The notes: generated from the sequence alone by a model not told the origin. A DNA stretch of 64,000 nucleotides from Thermoanaerobaculia bacterium (GCA_036399695.1 DASWMP010000345.1:1478-65477), one strand, 5' to 3'; positions 10,218 through 29,416 are shown, counted from the stretch's first letter. Translations and numbers: made by a program.

Positions 10218-10478
10218 TCAGACCTGATAGCAGGGAGTGCCTTCACACCGCGGGAAATCGCAGAACCATCCACCGTTTGCATACCGGTAGCAGGTCTGCC
10301 GCTCGGTGCAATCGGCCATCGAGCCCGAGCCCGTCAGCATCTCGTAACAATGCGCATGGCAGCTCGTCTGTGTCTGATCGCATCCGGTCTCACACACGTA
10401 GGAGCAGGCCAGCGCGACAGGACTGAGGCTGAAGCACGTGACGATCGCAAGGACGATGATCACTGACGGCCGGCGCAT
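10218..10478 (-). CDS. Small Cys-rich secreted peptide (86 aa; 12 Cys in the roughly 62-aa mature part)
   Basis: Perfect RBS GGAACGGAGGTAGAC before the ATG. Signal peptide 'MRRPSVIIVLAIVTCFSLSPVALA'. Mature part 'CSYVCETGCDQTQTSCHAHCYEMLTGSGSMADCTERQTCYRYANGGWFCDFPRCEGTPCYQV'. Its stop lies 16 nt before the start of the next gene. Confidence 0.6.
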   Translation of the reverse strand: MRRPSVIIVLAIVTCFSLSPVALACSYVCETGCDQTQTSCHAHCYEMLTGSGSMADCTERQTCYRYANGGWFCDFPRCEGTPCYQV

Positions 10479-11614: not shown

Positions 11615-11842
11615 GGCCGGTAGTGTAGCGCGTCGGCCTACCCGTGCAGGCAGACGCGAAACGTCGGGCTCGGCCGGTCATTCATCACAACCGCTCTGCG
11701 TCCACAGGTAGGGAAAACGCGGGTTCTGGCCCTCCTTCTATGACACCGCAATGAATTGGCTGTGCGTCGTGCGCTGCGCTCATCGGGACGCAGGTTGCTC
11801 GAAACGTGTGCGCGTCGATGCCCGTCAGGAGGCTATGGCCCA

Positions 11843-13066
11843 ATGAAGATCGAGATCCAGGTCAACAACAGTGTCAGCCCGAGTGCGCGATTCGTGTCGT
11901 GGGCGCCGTCGCCCTGCCGCGTGCGCATTACCGATCCGTCGGGGGCCACGGGGGCGAACGTCAGCGTGCAGATCGCCAGCACGTCGGCGGCCAGTGCCGG
12001 GGCGGTGGTGTTCCGCAAAGGGACGACGGGCGCGTTCGCGGCTACGTTGACGTTGCCGGTGCCGGCCAACGGCACGTCCGTCGCCTTTTTCACGGTCGGC
12101 AAGTTCGGGCGTCCGAGCACGAGCCCGGGCGACGTGAGAATTCAGGCGCGCGTCGGCACAACGGTGATCGAGACGGTGCCGGTCATGGTGCGGGTACGCA
12201 AGGACGCGAACACGCTCACGCCGGGAGAACGGGACCGCGTCGTATCGGCCTTCGCGCAGCTCAACAACCAGGGGACCGGCCGGTTCACCGACTTCCGCGA
12301 CATGCATACGAACGCGAGCTCGCCGCAGGCGCACGGCGCGGCGGGGTTCCTGCCGTGGCATCGCGCGTACCTGCTCGACCTCGAGCGCGAGCTGCAGGCT
12401 GTCGACGCGAGCGTGTCGCTACCGTATTGGCGCTTCGACCGTCCCGCGCCGAACCTCTTCACACGCGAGTTCCTCGGCGTCTCCGACAACCTCGGCACGG
12501 TGCGTTTCAGCCCCACGAATCCGTTGCAGTTCTGGCGAACGGACGGAGTGCAGGGCATCAATCGGCGGCCGTTCTTCAGTACCACCGTGGCGCCTCCGGG
12601 CCTGCTGAACGAGAACGACACCATCGGCCTCGGCACGCGCTACGCCGTCTTCCGGAACATGGAAGGCAACCCTCACGGCATGGCGCACACGAGCTTCGGC
12701 GGCTCGATTTCCAGCATCAGCACGGCCGCGCGCGATCCGCTGTTCTTCCTGCTGCACTGCAACGTCGACCGCCTCTGGGCGAAGTGGCAGCGCAAGAACG
12801 GGCGCTTCGATCCCGCGGTCGCGGCGTCGTACGACACACAGGCGTCCAACCCGATCGGCCACCGGCTCGGTGACACGATGTGGCCGTGGAACGGGATCAC
12901 GGGCGGACAACGGCCGCCGACCGCGCCTGGCGGTGCGCTGGCGAATTCGCCCGTCGTCACCGCGCCGGGCCCGCAGCCGCTCGTCCAGAGCAGCCTCGAT
13001 TACCAGGGCGCCGTCAACGCTCTGTCCCGCATGGGCTTCGACTACGACGACGTGGCGTTTGCGTAA
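11843..13066 (+). CDS. Tyrosinase (type-3 copper polyphenol oxidase) with an N-terminal Ig-like extension
   Basis: RBS GGAGG 11 nt before the ATG. CuA 'HTNASSPQAHGAAGFLPWHRAYL'. CuB 'HGMAHTSFGG...LFFLLHCNVDRLWAKWQRK'. No signal or Tat motif. Confidence 0.8.
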   Translation: MKIEIQVNNSVSPSARFVSWAPSPCRVRITDPSGATGANVSVQIASTSAASAGAVVFRKGTTGAFAATLTLPVPANGTSVAFFTVGKFGRPSTSPGDVRIQARVGTTVIETVPVMVRVRKDANTLTPGERDRVVSAFAQLNNQGTGRFTDFRDMHTNASSPQAHGAAGFLPWHRAYLLDLERELQAVDASVSLPYWRFDRPAPNLFTREFLGVSDNLGTVRFSPTNPLQFWRTDGVQGINRRPFFSTTVAPPGLLNENDTIGLGTRYAVFRNMEGNPHGMAHTSFGGSISSISTAARDPLFFLLHCNVDRLWAKWQRKNGRFDPAVAASYDTQASNPIGHRLGDTMWPWNGITGGQRPPTAPGGALANSPVVTAPGPQPLVQSSLDYQGAVNALSRMGFDYDDVAFA

Positions 13067-13081
13067 GCCAGAGGAGAATCA

Positions 13082-13951
13082 ATGACGACGACACGCAAGC
13101 GCCCGACCCGTTCATCCAAATCAGGCAAACTGGCGAAAGCCGCCAAGTCCGCGGCGTCCGGCGTGAAGCAGACGGTCAAACAACGCGTGGCCGCCATCGC
13201 GCAGAGTCCGCTCGCGGTGTGTGACAGCGACAAGGAGCTGCAGAAGACGCTCGACCTCCTGCGCGACGAGAACGAGCAGGTGCCGGTGCGCCTGGCCGCG
13301 CTGCAGTCGTTGCAGGCGGCGAGCTTCAGCGTCGTGGCCTTCGAGTCGTGCCGCGCCGACTACATCGGTACGCTGCGCGAGGTCGCGGAAGACCCCGATC
13401 CCGAGCTGCGCCAGCGGGTGCTCGGCATCCTCGCGCGGGAGAAAGACGGCTTCGCGCAACTGAAGCTCATCGAAGGGCTCGAGGACCCGTCGAAGGCGCT
13501 GGTCCCGCCGGAGAAGGCGCTGCAGTTGCTCAGCTACGACGTGCACGCGGAAGCGTACGCCGTGGCGCGCGACATCATCGCCCAGCCGCCGAACGAAGAC
13601 GCACGGCGCGAAGCCCTGCGCCTGCTCGCCGCCGATGCCACGGCCGCGCCGGTGTTCGAGAAGCTGTTGCGCGACAAGGACGAACAGGCGGAGATCCGCC
13701 AGCTTTCGGCCTCCGCGCTCCAGGCGCTGAAGCCGGAGAAGCTGCAGAGCCATGCACGCGAGATCCTGCTCGACGCGACGGACTACGACGAGATCAAGGC
13801 CACGAGTCTGACGGCGATGACGCAGTTCGGCGATGCCGCGTCGGTGGCGAACGACGACGAATTACGAGACACGGTCGATCAGATGAGTGCCGAGGCTTCA
13901 CCGAAAGTGAAACAGACGGCGAAGCGGTTCAACATCAAGTACAGCCGGTAA
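13082..13951 (+). CDS. HEAT/PBS-lyase-type helical repeat protein
   Basis: RBS GAGGAGAATCA before the ATG. Repeated 'xxVRxxALQSLxxxxD' helical units. Begins 16 nt after the tyrosinase stop. Confidence 0.5.
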   Translation: MTTTRKRPTRSSKSGKLAKAAKSAASGVKQTVKQRVAAIAQSPLAVCDSDKELQKTLDLLRDENEQVPVRLAALQSLQAASFSVVAFESCRADYIGTLREVAEDPDPELRQRVLGILAREKDGFAQLKLIEGLEDPSKALVPPEKALQLLSYDVHAEAYAVARDIIAQPPNEDARREALRLLAADATAAPVFEKLLRDKDEQAEIRQLSASALQALKPEKLQSHAREILLDATDYDEIKATSLTAMTQFGDAASVANDDELRDTVDQMSAEASPKVKQTAKRFNIKYSR

Positions 13952-13956
13952 TCGCG

Positions 13957-15597
13957 ATGACCGTCGCCGGCGTGGAGTCAGAAGCAACGTTCGCGGGACT
14001 GGTGGAGCGCCTGGTCGCCGATGCGGACCGTCGCGAGCAGTTGACGGAGCTGTTGCGGGAGGAGCATCCGCTCTACGAGCAGCGTGGCACCGCTACGACC
14101 GTCCGGATGCGCGGCTGGATTCTGCTCGCGCTGGCGCGCACGGGCGTGCCGGACGAGGCGCTGCTCTTCGTGCTCGAGGAGCTGGAGAGCGGCGTCGATC
14201 CGTATCTCGTGGCCGCGGCGGCGCGCGCACTTCGCAGCTATCCGCGGCCGAAAGCGGCGTTCGCGCCGCTCCTGCTGCGCGCGCTCGGGAACATCCGCTT
14301 TCGCGATGAACGGGTGTCGCTGGACCGGTATGGCGCATATGCCGTCGGGCCGGTCGGCACGACGCCTGTGCGTGAATTGCTGGCGACGCTGGCGTGGCTC
14401 GGCCCGCACGCGCGGGCGGTGCGTGCCGATCTGGAGTTGCTGCGGCAGGATCGCGGTCTCGCACGCAAGTACGGCGATGACCTGGACGCCGCGCTGGCGG
14501 CCATCCGCGGCGGTGACGATGCGGCAGAGCATGGCGCCGATTCCTGTTGCGAGCTGCCCGGCGGCATTCAGGGATCGCGCTGGTGGCCGTTCGCCAATCG
14601 TGCCGGCGCCGAGGACGTGGAGGGCGTCGGCTTCGAGGATCACGACGGGACGGCCAGCACATTCAAGGAGCTGTTCCGCGGTCGCGTCTCGATCGTGGTG
14701 TTCTTCTACACGCGCTGCGACAACCCGCTCAAGTGCTCGCTGACGGTCTCGAAGCTCGCGCGGGTGCAGCAACTGCTGGAGGAGCGCGGGCTGGCCGGCC
14801 GGATCGCGACGGCCGCGATCACGTACGATCCGGCCTTCGACGTGCCGGAGCGGCTGCGCGTGTACGGGAAGGACCGGCGGGTGCGCATGGATGGCGACCA
14901 CCGGATGCTCCGGGCGGTCGACGGCCTCGACACGCTGCGCCGCTACTTCGGCCTCGGCGTGAACTTCATCGAGTCGCTCGTGAACCGGCATCGCATCGAG
15001 GCGTACGTTCTCGACGCCGAGGGGCGCATCGCCGCGTCGTTCGAACGGCTGCAGTGGGATGAAGAAGCGTTGGTGGATCGCAGCGTCGCCGTCATGGAGG
15101 AGCAGCGCGAGACGGAACCGGAGGCGCCGGCGAAGGCTGGCTCCACGAAACGGAAAGTCGCGTTCCCGATGCTCGCAACAATGGCCAGCATCGCCCTGGC
15201 GTTCTTCCCGAAGTGTCCGGTGTGCTGGGCCGCGTATCTGAGCCTGTTCGGCGTCGCGGGGTTGAACCAGATTCCGTATTCGCCCTGGCTCCAACCCGCC
15301 ATCGCGGCGCTGGTGCTCGTGAACGTCGCCACGGTGTGGCTGCGCGGACGCGCGACGCGGCGGCTGACGGGGTTCTATCTCGTGACTGCCGGCGCGCTGG
15401 TGACGCTTTCGAGCGTGACGCTCGGGTGGAAGAGCGTCTCGGCGATCGGGATCATCCTGACGATGGCGGGTTCGCTCGTGAGCGCGCGACGGCTACAAAG
15501 CGGATCGGCGCCGTCGCGTGTCTCTCGCGCGCGTGGGTCAGGCGGCCTGAGTGAGGAGCTGCTGCCAAGGATCGCTGATCCCAAGATCCCGGGCTAG
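13957..15597 (+). CDS. Fusion protein: HEAT-like N-terminus, SCO1/SenC-like thioredoxin-fold domain, and a C-terminal multi-TM domain with a CPVC motif
   Basis: ATG 5 nt after the previous stop. SCO-like 'FEDHDGTASTFKELFRGRVSIVVFFYTRCDNPLKCSLT...ITYDPAFDVPERLRVYGK'. TM region 'ALAFFPKCPVCWAAYLSLFGVAG'. The longer track ORF from 13348 runs in an alternate frame across the previous gene. Confidence 0.5.
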   Translation: MTVAGVESEATFAGLVERLVADADRREQLTELLREEHPLYEQRGTATTVRMRGWILLALARTGVPDEALLFVLEELESGVDPYLVAAAARALRSYPRPKAAFAPLLLRALGNIRFRDERVSLDRYGAYAVGPVGTTPVRELLATLAWLGPHARAVRADLELLRQDRGLARKYGDDLDAALAAIRGGDDAAEHGADSCCELPGGIQGSRWWPFANRAGAEDVEGVGFEDHDGTASTFKELFRGRVSIVVFFYTRCDNPLKCSLTVSKLARVQQLLEERGLAGRIATAAITYDPAFDVPERLRVYGKDRRVRMDGDHRMLRAVDGLDTLRRYFGLGVNFIESLVNRHRIEAYVLDAEGRIAASFERLQWDEEALVDRSVAVMEEQRETEPEAPAKAGSTKRKVAFPMLATMASIALAFFPKCPVCWAAYLSLFGVAGLNQIPYSPWLQPAIAALVLVNVATVWLRGRATRRLTGFYLVTAGALVTLSSVTLGWKSVSAIGIILTMAGSLVSARRLQSGSAPSRVSRARGSGGLSEELLPRIADPKIPG

Positions 15598-16077
15598 CGA
15601 CGGTATGTCGATCGACGGCGGCCTGTGGCGCCCGAGGAGCGCCTTCAGGCGTAACGACGGAACAACGATCACGTCGGGGACGACCGTAGGATTCGCCGCT
15701 GCATCGCTCGTGAACAAGACGAAGACCAGGTAATGGTGCTTCCGTGCGCTGAATGGCTGAAGAAGCCACTTCGTCGTCCCGACCAGTGTCTGCACGTCCA
15801 GAGTCAGCGCCTTTCCCGGCGACTGCAGGACGGTGATGTCCACGCTGCCGGGATGCGCGTTCGTCAAACTCGCTTCGCCGCCCAATCGATGCAGCACGGA
15901 CAGTACGTGAAAACGAGCCGCAAGCTCGAGATGCCTGCCGCGGACGACCCATGCCGGCCGTGGCATCGTCAACGGCGGGACGTAGAGAGGCTCACCCCAG
16001 GCGGAGGAGTCAGCGAGATCGGCCAGCACCTCAGCTTCAATCTCGTCATCGCTGAGCTTACGTTTGCGTGAACTCAT
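15538..16077 (-). CDS. Hypothetical protein (179 aa), translationally coupled to the upstream BrnT-like gene
   Basis: Start 'MSSRKRKLSDDEIEAE' overlaps the upstream stop in an ATGA arrangement. No recognisable RHH or HTH. Its 3' end overlaps the convergent 13957-15597 gene by about 60 nt. Confidence 0.4.
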   Translation of the reverse strand: MSSRKRKLSDDEIEAEVLADLADSSAWGEPLYVPPLTMPRPAWVVRGRHLELAARFHVLSVLHRLGGEASLTNAHPGSVDITVLQSPGKALTLDVQTLVGTTKWLLQPFSARKHHYLVFVLFTSDAAANPTVVPDVIVVPSLRLKALLGRHRPPSIDIPSLARDLGISDPWQQLLTQAA

Positions 16078-16325
16078 AGATCCCAGCCGGTGATGAAACG
16101 TAAGTCGCGGCTACCTTCCACCACCACGATCAACTCGAGCGGCCTGCCGGCATCGGTACGCCCTCTCACGCGGTAGCGGTCGTCTGAACGTTTGTTCCGG
16201 ATGACGATGATGCCGTTCGCCATGACTTCCATGACATCGTACCTGCTGATCCCGTGCGCAGCCAGCTTCGCATCGTTGAAGGTGATGTCATAGTCGTCTG
16301 GATCGAAGCGTTCCCATCGGACCAC
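16074..16325 (-). CDS. BrnT-like (DUF497) ribonuclease toxin family protein
   Basis: 'FDPDDYDITFNDAKLAAHGISRYDVMEVM...RYRVRGRTDAGRPLELIVVVEGSRDLRFITGWD' matches the DUF497 pattern (F-WD, AK-HG-S-E, RfiaiG, G-llvvv, RIISAR). Confidence 0.5.
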   Translation of the reverse strand: MVRWERFDPDDYDITFNDAKLAAHGISRYDVMEVMANGIIVIRNKRSDDRYRVRGRTDAGRPLELIVVVEGSRDLRFITGWDL

Positions 16326-18189: not shown

Positions 18190-18620
18190 GTGCACGAGGA
18201 GGGCTCCGGGACCGATACGAGATCCGTTTCGAGTGATTCGAATGACTCGTTGAGTGATGGGAAGTCGGTTTCGAGTGACCGGAAAGCGGTGCCGAGTGAT
18301 GCGGGATCGACTCACAGTGATGCGCATTCGATTCGGCGTGATCCGGAATCGGCTCTGAGCGATCGGAAATCGGTTTCGAGTGTTCGGAAATCGATTTGGA
18401 GTGTTCGAGTCTCGTCCTGGAGACACTCGAAATCGGTTTTGAGTGTTCGAGTCTGGTCGGGAGGACACCGAAATTCGGTTTTGAGTGATCGATTCTCGGT
18501 TTGAGGACACTCGCAACACTAAAAACCGATTTCGGATCACTCAAAACGATCCAGTCTCGTCGGGAGGACACTGGAGATCGGTTTTTGCGTGTTTGTGTCT
18601 CGTCTGGAGGCACCGCGCAC
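18190..18620. repeat. AT-rich degenerate tandem array of roughly 21-bp units (GAAATCGGTTTCGAGTGATCG-like), becoming about 42-bp units distally
   Basis: At least 12 consecutive units such as gaagtcggtttcgagtgaccg / gaaatcggtttcgagtgttcg / gaaatcgatttggagtgttcg. GC content is markedly lower than in the flanks. Sits immediately upstream of the sulfatase start. Confidence 0.6.
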
Positions 18621-29168: not shown

Positions 29169-29416
29169 GAGACTCCTTTCGCTTCCCTCCGAAGCGTGAA
29201 TACGAGCGAGTCTGAGCGGTCGGTCTCCTGGCTCTCGGGTCATCCTTCCCACACCACCCTTCCCGCTTTCGCAGTGGGGACCCATCGAGGGTCGGGTGTG
29301 AGTCGTCGCCGAACACAGTGGCGGGGGCCGCGCCGGCTTGAACCGGCTTCCCGTGCACCGCATCAGATGCATGTTGGGAAAGAACTGGGGGCAGATGATA
29401 GCACTGGCCGCGGCCT

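Follow-up and report, generated by a model that had tools for sequence, protein, structure and literature searches.

How is a tyrosinase-family enzyme supplied with copper when it carries no export signal and no caddie protein is encoded beside it? The question is raised by a locus within a 64,000-nucleotide stretch of DNA from a Thermoanaerobaculia bacterium (GCA_036399695.1 DASWMP010000345.1:1478-65477; the window, for short), where the gene for such an enzyme (g1) is followed immediately by genes for a HEAT-repeat protein (g2) and a fusion protein (g3). Two known tyrosinase systems invite comparison, namely the co-transcribed caddie MelC1, a tyrosinase helper believed to supply the enzyme with copper (PMC3817396, PMC9454253), and PpoB2 of the Marinomonas mediterranea ppoB1-ppoB2 operon, a downstream-encoded membrane protein (COG5486, i.e. 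of a transmembrane metal-binding type) on which the tyrosinase specifically depends for the transfer of copper (PMC2855505). The original prediction held that g2 and g3 form an unconventional putative copper-delivery pair in place of a MelC1-type chaperone. We found no publication on the g1-g2-g3 cassette. The conserved candidate ligands and the genetic linkage described below suggest that these helpers load copper into the enzyme intracellularly, in a manner not previously described.

A three-gene unit shared by soil bacteria of many phyla

The locus comprises the following elements:

11827..11832, + strand: AGGAGG ribosome-binding site, 10 nt 5' of the g1 ATG (read from the sequence)
11843..13066, + strand: g1, tyrosinase-family type-3 copper protein, 407 aa, without signal peptide (Pfam Tyrosinase)
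13082..13951, + strand: g2, HEAT-repeat protein, 289 aa (Pfam HEAT_2)
13957..15597, + strand: g3, four-part fusion protein, 546 aa (Pfam SCO1-SenC)

The start codon of g1 is placed by the AGGAGG motif, of which a similar copy is found at the equivalent position in most g1 homologs, together with the homolog length of 406-407 aa. All three genes lie on the + strand, and the spacers of 15 nt (g1-g2; one less than the 16 nt given originally) and 5 nt (g2-g3, as given) indicate that they are co-translated. There is no same-strand gene in the 228 bp upstream of g1, and the neighbouring genes in the window encode DUF3574, YcxB and DUF4258 proteins and a sulfatase. The earlier statement that the tyrosinase lacks a signal or Tat motif was confirmed and extends to its partners, in that g1, g2 and g3 are all devoid of a hydrophobic N-terminal stretch and of a Tat motif. 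The absence of a MelC1-like caddie gene was likewise borne out: there were no MelC1 Pfam matches in g2, g3, the N-terminal domain of g1 or the neighbouring genes.

Inspection of the gene neighbourhood in relatives showed that the linkage, on which the original prediction depended, is retained widely. Of 80 species-level loci, drawn from about eight phyla (including Acidobacteriota, Proteobacteria, Bacteroidota, Verrucomicrobiota, Planctomycetota, Myxococcota and Gemmatimonadota), 67 carry the trio with order and strand kept, and so does each of the five metagenome or MAG contigs that were inspected. The flanks are unrelated between loci, and across the 80 no fourth gene is conserved beside the trio. 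Such an arrangement, with all three genes at 67 of the loci, goes far past what chance would produce. The pairwise identities of g1, g2 and g3 are correlated (r 0.86-0.92), i.e. the three proteins have co-evolved; at five loci g3 is found without its partners.

In having a tyrosinase with a putative dedicated helper in its operon the cassette resembles melC1-melC2 of Streptomyces. It differs, however, in that its helpers are encoded downstream instead of upstream and have unrelated folds (HEAT, SCO, MerC-like), in that both a MelC1-like protein and a Tat signal are missing, and in the extra N-terminal beta-sandwich of g1; the small Tat-signalled helper encoded directly upstream, which characterizes MelC1 systems, has no counterpart at g1.

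The predicted dicopper enzyme

Within g1 the following features were located:

11843..12205, + strand: N-terminal beta-sandwich (Ig-like) domain, aa 1-121 (AF2 model)
12305..12361, + strand: CuA ligands H155, H164 and H173, 100% conserved in 64 species
12674..12757, + strand: CuB ligands H278, H282 and H305, 98-100% conserved in 64 species

The match of g1 to Pfam Tyrosinase (PF00264) is strong (E 1.2e-33; 117.8 bits against a gathering threshold of 22.6), and an identical protein is annotated as 'tyrosinase family protein [Thermoanaerobaculia bacterium]'. The histidines of the two copper sites that had been recognised originally, spaced H-x8-H-x8-H (CuA) and H-x3-H-x22-H (CuB), align with the hemocyanin and tyrosinase motifs, and the conservation of all six implies that the enzyme needs two copper ions. 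The nearest solved single-domain relatives are the tyrosinases of B. megaterium and Streptomyces (the latter at ~32% identity); multi-unit mollusc hemocyanins are also among the solved matches, and NspF, an o-aminophenol oxidase, appears in the list of structural matches.

The extra Ig-like domain noted originally is predicted by AF2 as a beta-sandwich of nine strands, at a pLDDT of ~70-90; the catalytic domain is modelled poorly (pLDDT 47). The N-terminal domain has no Pfam match, is found at full length in all homologs, those of Bacteroidota included, and contains a cysteine (C25) that is 91% conserved. A beta-rich domain N-terminal to the dicopper domain is also found in insect prophenoloxidase and Pseudomonas PvdP; these have two CuB-type motifs (PMC11608171), whereas g1 has the canonical CuA and CuB.

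With respect to the type of enzyme, g1 scores 97.5 bits against the NCBIfam MelC2 equivalog cut-off of 450 and falls far short of the BagH/FevF equivalog cut-off as well. By its sequence g1 is a type-3 copper protein outside the MelC2 equivalog group, which may or may not have the monophenolase activity of a true tyrosinase. The residue that follows the first CuB histidine, an Asn in the Streptomyces and Bacillus tyrosinases (N191 of the former and, for B. megaterium, N205), is a Gly in g1 (G279) and in at least 97% of its homologs; PDB entry 7ciy is an engineered N191G mutant at precisely this position. The cysteine that follows the third CuB histidine (C306) is conserved in 86%. Furthermore, the 120 top matches of g1 are 73-100% identical to it, at a constant length of 406-407 aa, and such extreme conservation suggests a tightly constrained interaction surface.

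The Gly replacement, the distant equivalog cut-offs, the NspF match and the extreme conservation could all point to a specialised enzyme instead of a general phenol oxidase (for instance, an o-aminophenol oxidase, a modifier of Tyr/Cys in proteins or peptides, or a producer of a small metabolite), in which case g2 or g3 would be substrate or carrier and not maturation factor. Nevertheless, we hold this to be very improbable: no biosynthetic genes are co-conserved with the trio, neither conserved Tyr-rich nor conserved peptide-precursor features were detected in g2 and g3, and the SCO site of g3 (see below) would still have to be explained.

The two downstream proteins

The HEAT-repeat protein predicted to follow the tyrosinase was recovered with a Pfam HEAT_2 score of 36 bits (cut-off 27.7). 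Its 1727 homologs are annotated as hypothetical or as HEAT repeat proteins, and a search by sequence returned no solved relative. It starts with a tail:

13082..13213, + strand: basic low-complexity tail of g2, aa 1-44, K/R/A/S/T/P-rich, net charge ~+9 to +15

The composition of this tail, not its sequence, is kept in every homolog inspected. A cluster of Cys, His or Met residues is absent from g2, and of these residue types only H155 stands out (99% conserved). Given that g2 has no recognisable metal site, the naming of both helpers as a copper-delivery pair exceeds the evidence and was overstated for g2, which is better described as a co-inherited protein and putative adaptor.

The features of g3, for which more than 1285 full-length homologs were found (the best 120 at 57-100% identity), are:

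13981..14508, + strand: N-terminal HEAT-like helical repeat domain, aa 9-184
14545..14550, + strand: vicinal Cys pair C197-C198 in the linker, 99-100% conserved in 76 species
14608..15111, + strand: SCO1/SenC thioredoxin-fold domain, aa 218-385
14716..14736, + strand: C254-DNPLK-C260 (C-x5-C, replacing the C-x3-C of SCO), both Cys 100% conserved in 76 species
14989..14991, + strand: H345, counterpart of the copper-binding His of SCO proteins, 100% conserved, aligned with the DH-motif His of human SCO2
15166..15501, + strand: C-terminal four-helix membrane domain, MerC-like, aa 404-515 (AF2 model)
15214..15225, + strand: C420-P-V-C423 in the first membrane helix, signature FFPKC[PA]xCW

New with respect to the original description are the HEAT-like N-terminal domain, C197-C198, H345 and the likeness of the membrane domain to MerC. 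A 541-aa protein annotated as 'SCO family protein [Thermoanaerobaculia bacterium]' is 100% identical over 99% of the g3 query.

The SCO1/SenC-like fold was upheld by profile searches: the region scores 41.5 bits against Pfam SCO1-SenC (cut-off 22.8), SCO proteins are its only sequence matches in a PDB profile search, and its best structural matches are all SCO proteins. The atypical CDNPLKC site was recognised correctly as well, and its C-x5-C spacing is invariant across the g3 family and departs from the canonical C-x3-C; C254 and C260 align with both Cys ligands of SCO2 if an insertion of two residues is allowed. The DPxxD motif is also invariant, and C197, C198, C254, C260 and H345 are 99-100% conserved across the 76 species, whose overall identity falls as low as 35%. 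The alignment with the SCO ligands suggests that C254, C260 and H345 constitute a putative copper site. The linker that carries C197-C198 is modelled as disordered (pLDDT <50).

SCO1/SenC/PrrC proteins are copper chaperones in the assembly of the CuA site of cytochrome oxidase, and g3 shares with them the thioredoxin fold, the two Cys and one His, and DPxxD. To our knowledge no other SCO domain has the cytoplasm-facing orientation that is predicted for the one in g3. SCO proteins characterised so far are exposed to the periplasm or to the mitochondrial intermembrane space and are anchored N-terminally (PMC7558416), whereas the SCO domain of g3 is located after ~215 residues that are predicted to be cytoplasmic, has no signal, is anchored at its C-terminal side according to the same prediction, and is fused to HEAT-like and MerC-like domains. 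A precedent for an SCO gene dedicated to a cuproenzyme other than cytochrome oxidase is provided by mtoX-SCO1/senC-mauG, where the operon partner is methanethiol oxidase (PMC5739008).

The C-terminal multi-TM domain with CPVC had been foreseen, and its predicted topology could be refined to four helices (405-438, split in the AF2 model; 445-467; 471-489; 492-515), with C420 and C423 in the first. Membrane helices are predicted exclusively at the C-terminus of g3, an N-terminal signal or helix being absent, and the loop charges fit a predicted N-in/C-in topology. The domain is missing in 16 of the 76 species, about a fifth (e.g. Bradyrhizobium), and the CPxC motif is kept in 79%, that is in every species that has the domain. 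Pfam MerC (PF03203) is the only family that recurs on it, in 24 of 28 members and below threshold (best E 0.0034): the g3 of the window scores 7.9-10.3 bits and stand-alone relatives of the domain come near with 21-26 bits, at a gathering threshold of 27.6. A comparison by hhalign with four MerC sequences gave a P of 0.0023 and a probability of 12.7% with the CxxC aligned, its counterpart in Tn21 MerC, a sequence confirmed against annotated merC genes, being CAAC.

MerC is a mercury(II) importer of mer operons. The likeness consists of an inner-membrane module of ~110 residues and four helices with the CxxC in the first, an alignment over ~83 of 108 profile positions with this motif in register, and a similar basic loop after helix 2. 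The differences lie in the scores below the Pfam cut-off, the signature (FFPKCPxCW instead of GCAACFP), the fusion to the C-terminus of a soluble protein and the cargo, which is presumed to be Cu(I); a mer context (MerR, MerA, MerP) is absent among the neighbours in the window. The ppoB1-ppoB2 operon likewise has a membrane-protein gene downstream of the tyrosinase gene, but PpoB2 contains neither an SCO nor a HEAT domain and the candidate ligands of g3 are Cys pairs; apart from SCO1-SenC, weak MerC and HEAT, g3 has no Pfam matches, so that it does not group with the COG5486 type.

Other roles for the partners can be weighed against these data. Tyrosinases are commonly kept latent by a lid domain or caddie (PMC9454253, PMC11608171), and g2 and g3 might carry no copper and instead tether g1 at the membrane's inner face, inactive until it is required, while copper reaches g1 from the general pool. 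Repeats of the HEAT and ARM kind serve generically as scaffolds for peptide binding, the g2 tail is of a membrane- or polyanion-binding type, and the highly conserved acidic C-terminal tail of g1 (GFDYDDVxFA) could be a docking peptide. However, control of latency or localisation leaves the invariant SCO-type Cys2His site and the CC pair unexplained, and the 16 g3 proteins without a membrane anchor do not fit it either, which makes it quite improbable in our estimate.

A quinone-forming enzyme in the cytoplasm is an intrinsic hazard to thiols, and g3 might be the redox partner of g1, i.e. a thiol-disulfide relay and not a metal chaperone, that shields the cytoplasm from the o-quinones of g1, keeps C25 and C306 reduced, or connects g1 to the membrane quinone pool. 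Its three conserved Cys pairs are arranged in series as in a disulfide cascade, the architecture would recall VKOR- or DsbD-type CxxC membrane proteins that carry a fused thioredoxin-like domain, 5 of 28 g3 members have AhpC-TSA matches (best E 3.9e-05), and in g1 cysteines are conserved beside a copper ligand and in the N-terminal domain. We nonetheless regard such a relay as unlikely, as the best matches in both sequence and structure are to SCO and not to peroxiredoxin or TlpA, the SCO-specific His ligand is invariant together with DPxxD, and the membrane domain is closer in character to a metal transporter, MerC, and has no Pfam match to VKOR, DsbB or DsbD. In addition, the cytoplasm is already reducing, and a dedicated reductase is therefore less obviously needed.

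A possible route of copper into the enzyme

The reading that we prefer, and to which we give a slightly better than even chance, makes g3 a copper chaperone that faces the cytoplasm, is dedicated to a cytoplasmic tyrosinase and may import Cu(I) as well, with g2 as an adaptor. Dedicated helpers have precedents in MelC1, PpoB2 and the SCO gene that shares an operon with methanethiol oxidase. The trio would then be a single operon, self-contained and horizontally mobile, through which a cytoplasmic dicopper oxidase is both produced and activated, g1 being the enzyme with a beta-sandwich added at its N-terminus. The Cys2His site formed by C254, C260 and H345 would bind copper on the cytoplasmic side and pass it on to apo-g1, with C197-C198 on the flexible linker as a potential intermediate carrier. 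As protein-protein adaptors, g2 and the HEAT-like N-terminal domain of g3 would keep the apo-enzyme close to the chaperone, and the basic tail of g2 may keep the complex at the membrane. Several observations count against this reading: the C-x5-C spacing is not canonical, the MerC likeness is sub-threshold, g2 has no Cys, His or Met cluster, and g3 stands alone at five loci. Moreover, the B. megaterium tyrosinase, the nearest single-domain solved relative of g1, needs no helper.

Where the MerC-like domain is present, its intramembrane CPxC might bring in Cu(I) from the periplasm, and import by this route would bypass the tightly buffered cytoplasmic copper pool; its absence from 16 of 76 species implies that import cannot be essential. 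The full sequence of events, in which a MerC-type module imports Cu(I) and passes it via the vicinal Cys pair to a cytoplasm-facing SCO domain that, with HEAT adaptors, metallates an N-terminally extended tyrosinase, the whole being a portable plug-in, is a tentative proposal that we consider rather doubtful. If true, it would amount to a complete import-to-insertion copper line around the general cytoplasmic copper buffer.

As to the substrate of g1, soil phenolics or catechols are likely by analogy with MelD2 of the Streptomyces melD operon, a plausible physiological analogue; this polyphenol oxidase stays inside the cell and gives protection from the phenolics of plants (PMC2758597).

Layout, linkage and distribution of the cassette

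We rate a compact cassette in the high-GC window (GC ~0.66) as a tyrosinase together with its putative dedicated metallation system. The original prediction had placed a tyrosinase, a HEAT-repeat protein and a SCO1/SenC fusion protein here, and Pfam matches on three adjoining forward-strand ORFs (g1, g2 and g3) bear this out.

Features of the cassette
11843-15597, +, three-ORF cassette, 3.75 kb
11843-13066, +, g1, tyrosinase-family protein, 407 aa; Pfam Tyrosinase, E 1.2e-33
13082-13951, +, g2, HEAT-repeat protein, 289 aa; HEAT_2 above threshold
13957-15597, +, g3, SCO fusion protein, 546 aa; SCO1-SenC above threshold at aa 228-312
g3 aa 188-217, disordered linker with C197-C198 inside, 99-100% conserved in 76 species
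g3 aa 404-515, membrane domain, four helical segments; C420-P-x-C423 in the first helix

The ATG of g1 sits 10 nt after an AGGAGG site and g2 is preceded by a GAGGAG site; the g2-g3 spacer is 5 nt as predicted, whereas the g1-g2 spacer measures 15 nt and not the predicted 16. All three proteins lack a Tat motif and a hydrophobic stretch at the N-terminus, and neither the operon nor its neighbouring genes encode anything like MelC1, the Streptomyces tyrosinase caddie, so that both absences claimed for the tyrosinase stand. Upstream of g1 neither a sigma-70-like site nor an Rfam element was found, and beyond the ribosome-binding site no k-mer was common to more than 8 of 63 loci. In several Acidobacteriota (loci L006, L007, L010, L015, L017, L025 and L028) a 5'-UTR block, CGCGGATCC..CACAGCAAC.GCGGGTAGGAGG, lies ~45 nt before the tyrosinase start and holds a short inverted repeat (CGCGG…CCGCG) adjoining the ribosome-binding site; the window's own upstream region is without this block.

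The three genes, predicted to form an operon, proved to be linked in relatives as well. A species-level scan (one genome per species, 185,579 species, alignment A1 as query) yielded 197 relatives, of which 80 loci were retrieved; 67 of the 80 have all three ORFs intact and in the same order, and ~6 are interrupted by contig ends. In the five true exceptions (L042, L051, L059, L067 and L084) g3 stands by itself or beside a remnant of g2; around the solo g3 of L042 and L059 lie unrelated genes, none of them for another cuproenzyme. One Alphaproteobacteria MAG (L051 versus L055) has a full cassette plus a second copy reduced to g3 and the 3' part of the HEAT gene. Five metagenome or MAG contigs reached via three g3 homologs likewise have the tyrosinase, HEAT and SCO-fusion genes in this order, with wholly different flanks, and the pairwise identities of the three proteins in 62 shared species correlate with r 0.86-0.92. 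Clustering of all flanking ORFs gave no family present in more than ~9 loci, i.e. no fourth conserved gene. That g1 would be a specialised enzyme, with g2 or g3 as its substrate or carrier, is the least probable of the alternatives that we considered; no biosynthetic genes are co-conserved.

Acidobacteriota are the main hosts (~52 of the 80 loci). Another ~19 loci belong to Alpha-, Beta- or Gammaproteobacteria, including cultured Bradyrhizobium spp. and Variovorax paradoxus as well as Nitrosospira MAGs, and four to Bacteroidota (Arcticibacter svalbardensis, Pedobacter, Puia and Chitinophagaceae); the remainder are from Verrucomicrobiota, Gemmatimonadota, Myxococcota, Planctomycetota and Nitrospira. 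Cultured carriers are Bradyrhizobium spp., Variovorax paradoxus ISL-3 and Arcticibacter svalbardensis MN12-7. At the protein level there are >2800 matches to g1 (the best 120 at 72-100% identity, nearly all 405-409 aa), >1700 to g2 and >1285 homologs of g3 (the best 120 full length, 57-100% identity), and well over a thousand protein clusters stem from soil and peat metagenomes. That proteins from different phyla are so similar (73% identity in the case of the Bradyrhizobium g1 homolog) points to the cassette having spread horizontally as a unit. An anti-phage defence function was rejected: there was no PADLOC match and a single relative in 2.9 million viral contigs, and the cassette is neither phage-borne nor like known defence systems.

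Architecture of the three proteins

The catalytic part of g1 (~aa 115-351) is a canonical type-3 copper domain, whose closest single-domain solved relatives are the B. megaterium tyrosinase (~105 bits), the Streptomyces tyrosinase (~32% identity) and the o-aminophenol oxidase NspF; multi-unit mollusc hemocyanins are also among the matches. The protein scores far under the NCBIfam MelC2 and BagH/FevF equivalog cut-offs, and in at least 97% of its homologs the first CuB His is followed by Gly, the residue being Asn in Streptomyces and Bacillus tyrosinases. Residues 1-121, which have no Pfam match, form a beta-sandwich in the AF2 model (mean pLDDT 47.5, poor outside this N-domain). A PCuAC-like copper chaperone was considered for this domain and rejected on account of a weak Foldseek match (E 0.065) and the lack of conserved His/Met ligands. 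Reviews from 2022 and 2024 recognise only three architectures of bacterial tyrosinases, namely caddie-dependent, C-terminally extended and bare, and record N-terminal domains only for insect enzymes and PvdP (PMC9454253, PMC11608171). The acidic C-terminal tail of g1, GFDYDDVxFA, is conserved.

In the case of g2, no solved relative was found by sequence; H155 is nearly invariant, and there is no cluster of Cys, His or Met. Every homolog inspected starts with a tail of ~40 aa (13082-13213 in the window) that is rich in K/R/A/S/T/P, with a net charge of ~+9 to +15. Its composition is kept and its sequence is not; as the tail is basic in the manner of histone H1, its ligand may be phospholipid of the membrane, polyphosphate or nucleic acid. 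In the Bradyrhizobium HEAT protein the Lys-rich tail is longer still. Paralogy between g2 and the N-domain of g3 was rejected, their similarity not being significant.

The AF2 model divides g3 into four parts: a HEAT-like domain, the linker, the SCO domain and the membrane domain. Both motifs named in the original prediction, CDNPLKC and CPVC, are located as described, and the SCO-like assignment withstood the profile check. The thioredoxin-like fold and some AhpC-TSA matches would also permit a thiol-disulfide or quinone-protection role for g3, but the SCO-specific His and motifs, together with a membrane domain that resembles MerC and not VKOR or DsbD, make such a role unlikely. Lower still we place the possibility that g2 and g3 tether g1 and control its latency while handling no copper, which leaves the invariant Cys2His site unexplained.

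On the membrane domain no Pfam family recurs except MerC, the mercury importer of mer operons, which matches 24 of 28 members (best E 0.0034) over profile positions 15-97 of 108. An hhalign comparison with four annotated MerC proteins spans 87 columns and brings the CxxC motifs into register (P 0.0023, probability 12.7%). An exhaustive search also yielded stand-alone proteins of 130-160 aa that carry AFFPKCPxCW and reach 21-26 bits on MerC, just short of the cut-off of 27.6 bits; since the scores fall below the Pfam cut-off, we name the g3 domain only MerC-like. Stand-alone membrane proteins (P0454, P0502, P0505, P0468, P0491, P0508, P0471, P0479 and P0510, from loci L090-L094) share the signature AFFPKCPxCWAAYMS, some stand-alone relatives bear an extra N-terminal domain of ~100 aa, and together these proteins resemble a family related to MerC that has so far gone undescribed; their genomic surroundings were short or gave no clue.

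The Lys+Arg counts in the segments before, between and after the g3 helices (4, 0, 4, 1 and 5) fit an N-in/C-in topology, which is also the topology reported for MerC. As g3 has no N-terminal signal, everything ahead of its membrane domain (HEAT-like domain, CC pair and SCO domain) should lie in the cytoplasm. The membrane domain is absent in 16 of 76 species (roughly a fifth; Bradyrhizobium, some Verrucomicrobia and others), where g3 stops just past the SCO domain (L062, L063, L068, L070 and L074 in Bradyrhizobium; L055-L057, L060, L078 and L080). Some of these shorter proteins end in Cys tails, i.e. …PRSCCSSS… in two Bradyrhizobium and EPCSSI or EECGSI in others. The membrane-less variants show that the core of g3 is the part from the HEAT-like to the SCO domain, with the CC pair between them, and copper import would thus be an add-on.

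A putative cytoplasmic route for copper

Intramembrane CxxC motifs serve in MerC to move Hg(II) inward. The always co-inherited g3 has such a motif in most species, besides an invariant SCO-type Cys2His site and, on a flexible tether, two adjacent Cys that are likewise invariant. Two copper ions are needed by g1, and free copper is kept extremely low in the bacterial cytoplasm (PMC3817396, PMC7558416). In the simplest reading, a thiolate relay in g3 would pass Cu(I) to apo-g1, HEAT-type surfaces of g2 and of the g3 N-domain would hold the client, and two tails, GFDYDDVxFA in g1 and the basic one in g2, are candidates for docking or for membrane binding. Like our other functional claims, this is inferred from the sequences, from predicted structures and from the linkage of the genes. 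By comparison with MelD2, an intracellular Streptomyces enzyme (PMC2758597), and in view of hosts from soil and peat, we speculate that the physiological role may be the oxidation of phenolics or catechols; bacterial tyrosinases have been discussed as regulating how phenolics turn over and carbon is stored in wet soils (PMC9454253).

Reviews describe tyrosinase as secreted and Tat-dependent, and SCO proteins as periplasmic chaperones (PMC3817396, PMC7558416). Functionally, the cassette resembles MelC1/MelC2, PpoB1/PpoB2 of Marinomonas, in which the tyrosinase depends on a membrane protein for the transfer of copper (PMC2855505), and the mtoX-SCO1/senC-mauG operon (PMC5739008), but it belongs to neither the MelC1 nor the PpoB2 family. 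Within the SCO superfamily, to which it belongs, g3 stands out by its non-canonical Cys spacing and by a topology predicted to be the opposite. Databases name the proteins 'tyrosinase family protein' (g1), 'hypothetical' or 'HEAT repeat' (g2) and 'SCO family protein' (g3), and a full-text search of the published literature found no description of the cassette. If our reading is correct, the cassette would be a widespread, self-contained answer to whether and how copper enzymes acquire their metal in the bacterial cytoplasm. Bacterial tyrosinases, with three known architectures (PMC9454253), would gain a fourth; SCO proteins would gain a new topology and ligand spacing and the MerC family, possibly, a copper-handling branch.

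Other features of the window

Features outside the cassette
10218-10478, -, 86-aa ORF, no Pfam match
15538-16077, -, 179-aa ORF, no Pfam match
16074-16325, -, DUF4258 (toxin-like) gene
16402 to ~18130, -, sulfatase gene
18252-18513, tandem repeat array
29201-29378, -, cobalamin riboswitch

The DUF4258 gene and the 179-aa ORF overlap by 4 nt, and the pair is convergent with g3, overlapping its 3' end by 60 nt; in a Gammaproteobacteria MAG (L002), DUF4258/DUF2283 pairs lie a few kb downstream of the cassette. The pair may be a toxin-antitoxin system that marks a mobile region. Directly upstream of the sulfatase gene, the repeat array has a period of 21/42 nt (~12 units of 21 nt, TRF score up to 152, local GC 0.596); the longest ORF across it gives NRF/ITQNR-like peptide repeats and is probably spurious. 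The riboswitch (RF00174, 74.5 bits, E 1.6e-16) is the only Rfam match in the window, which holds no tRNA genes. The 86-aa ORF, with its signal-peptide-like N-terminus and ~12 Cys (…CSYVCETGCDQTQTSCHAHCYEM…), could encode a small Cys-rich secreted protein.
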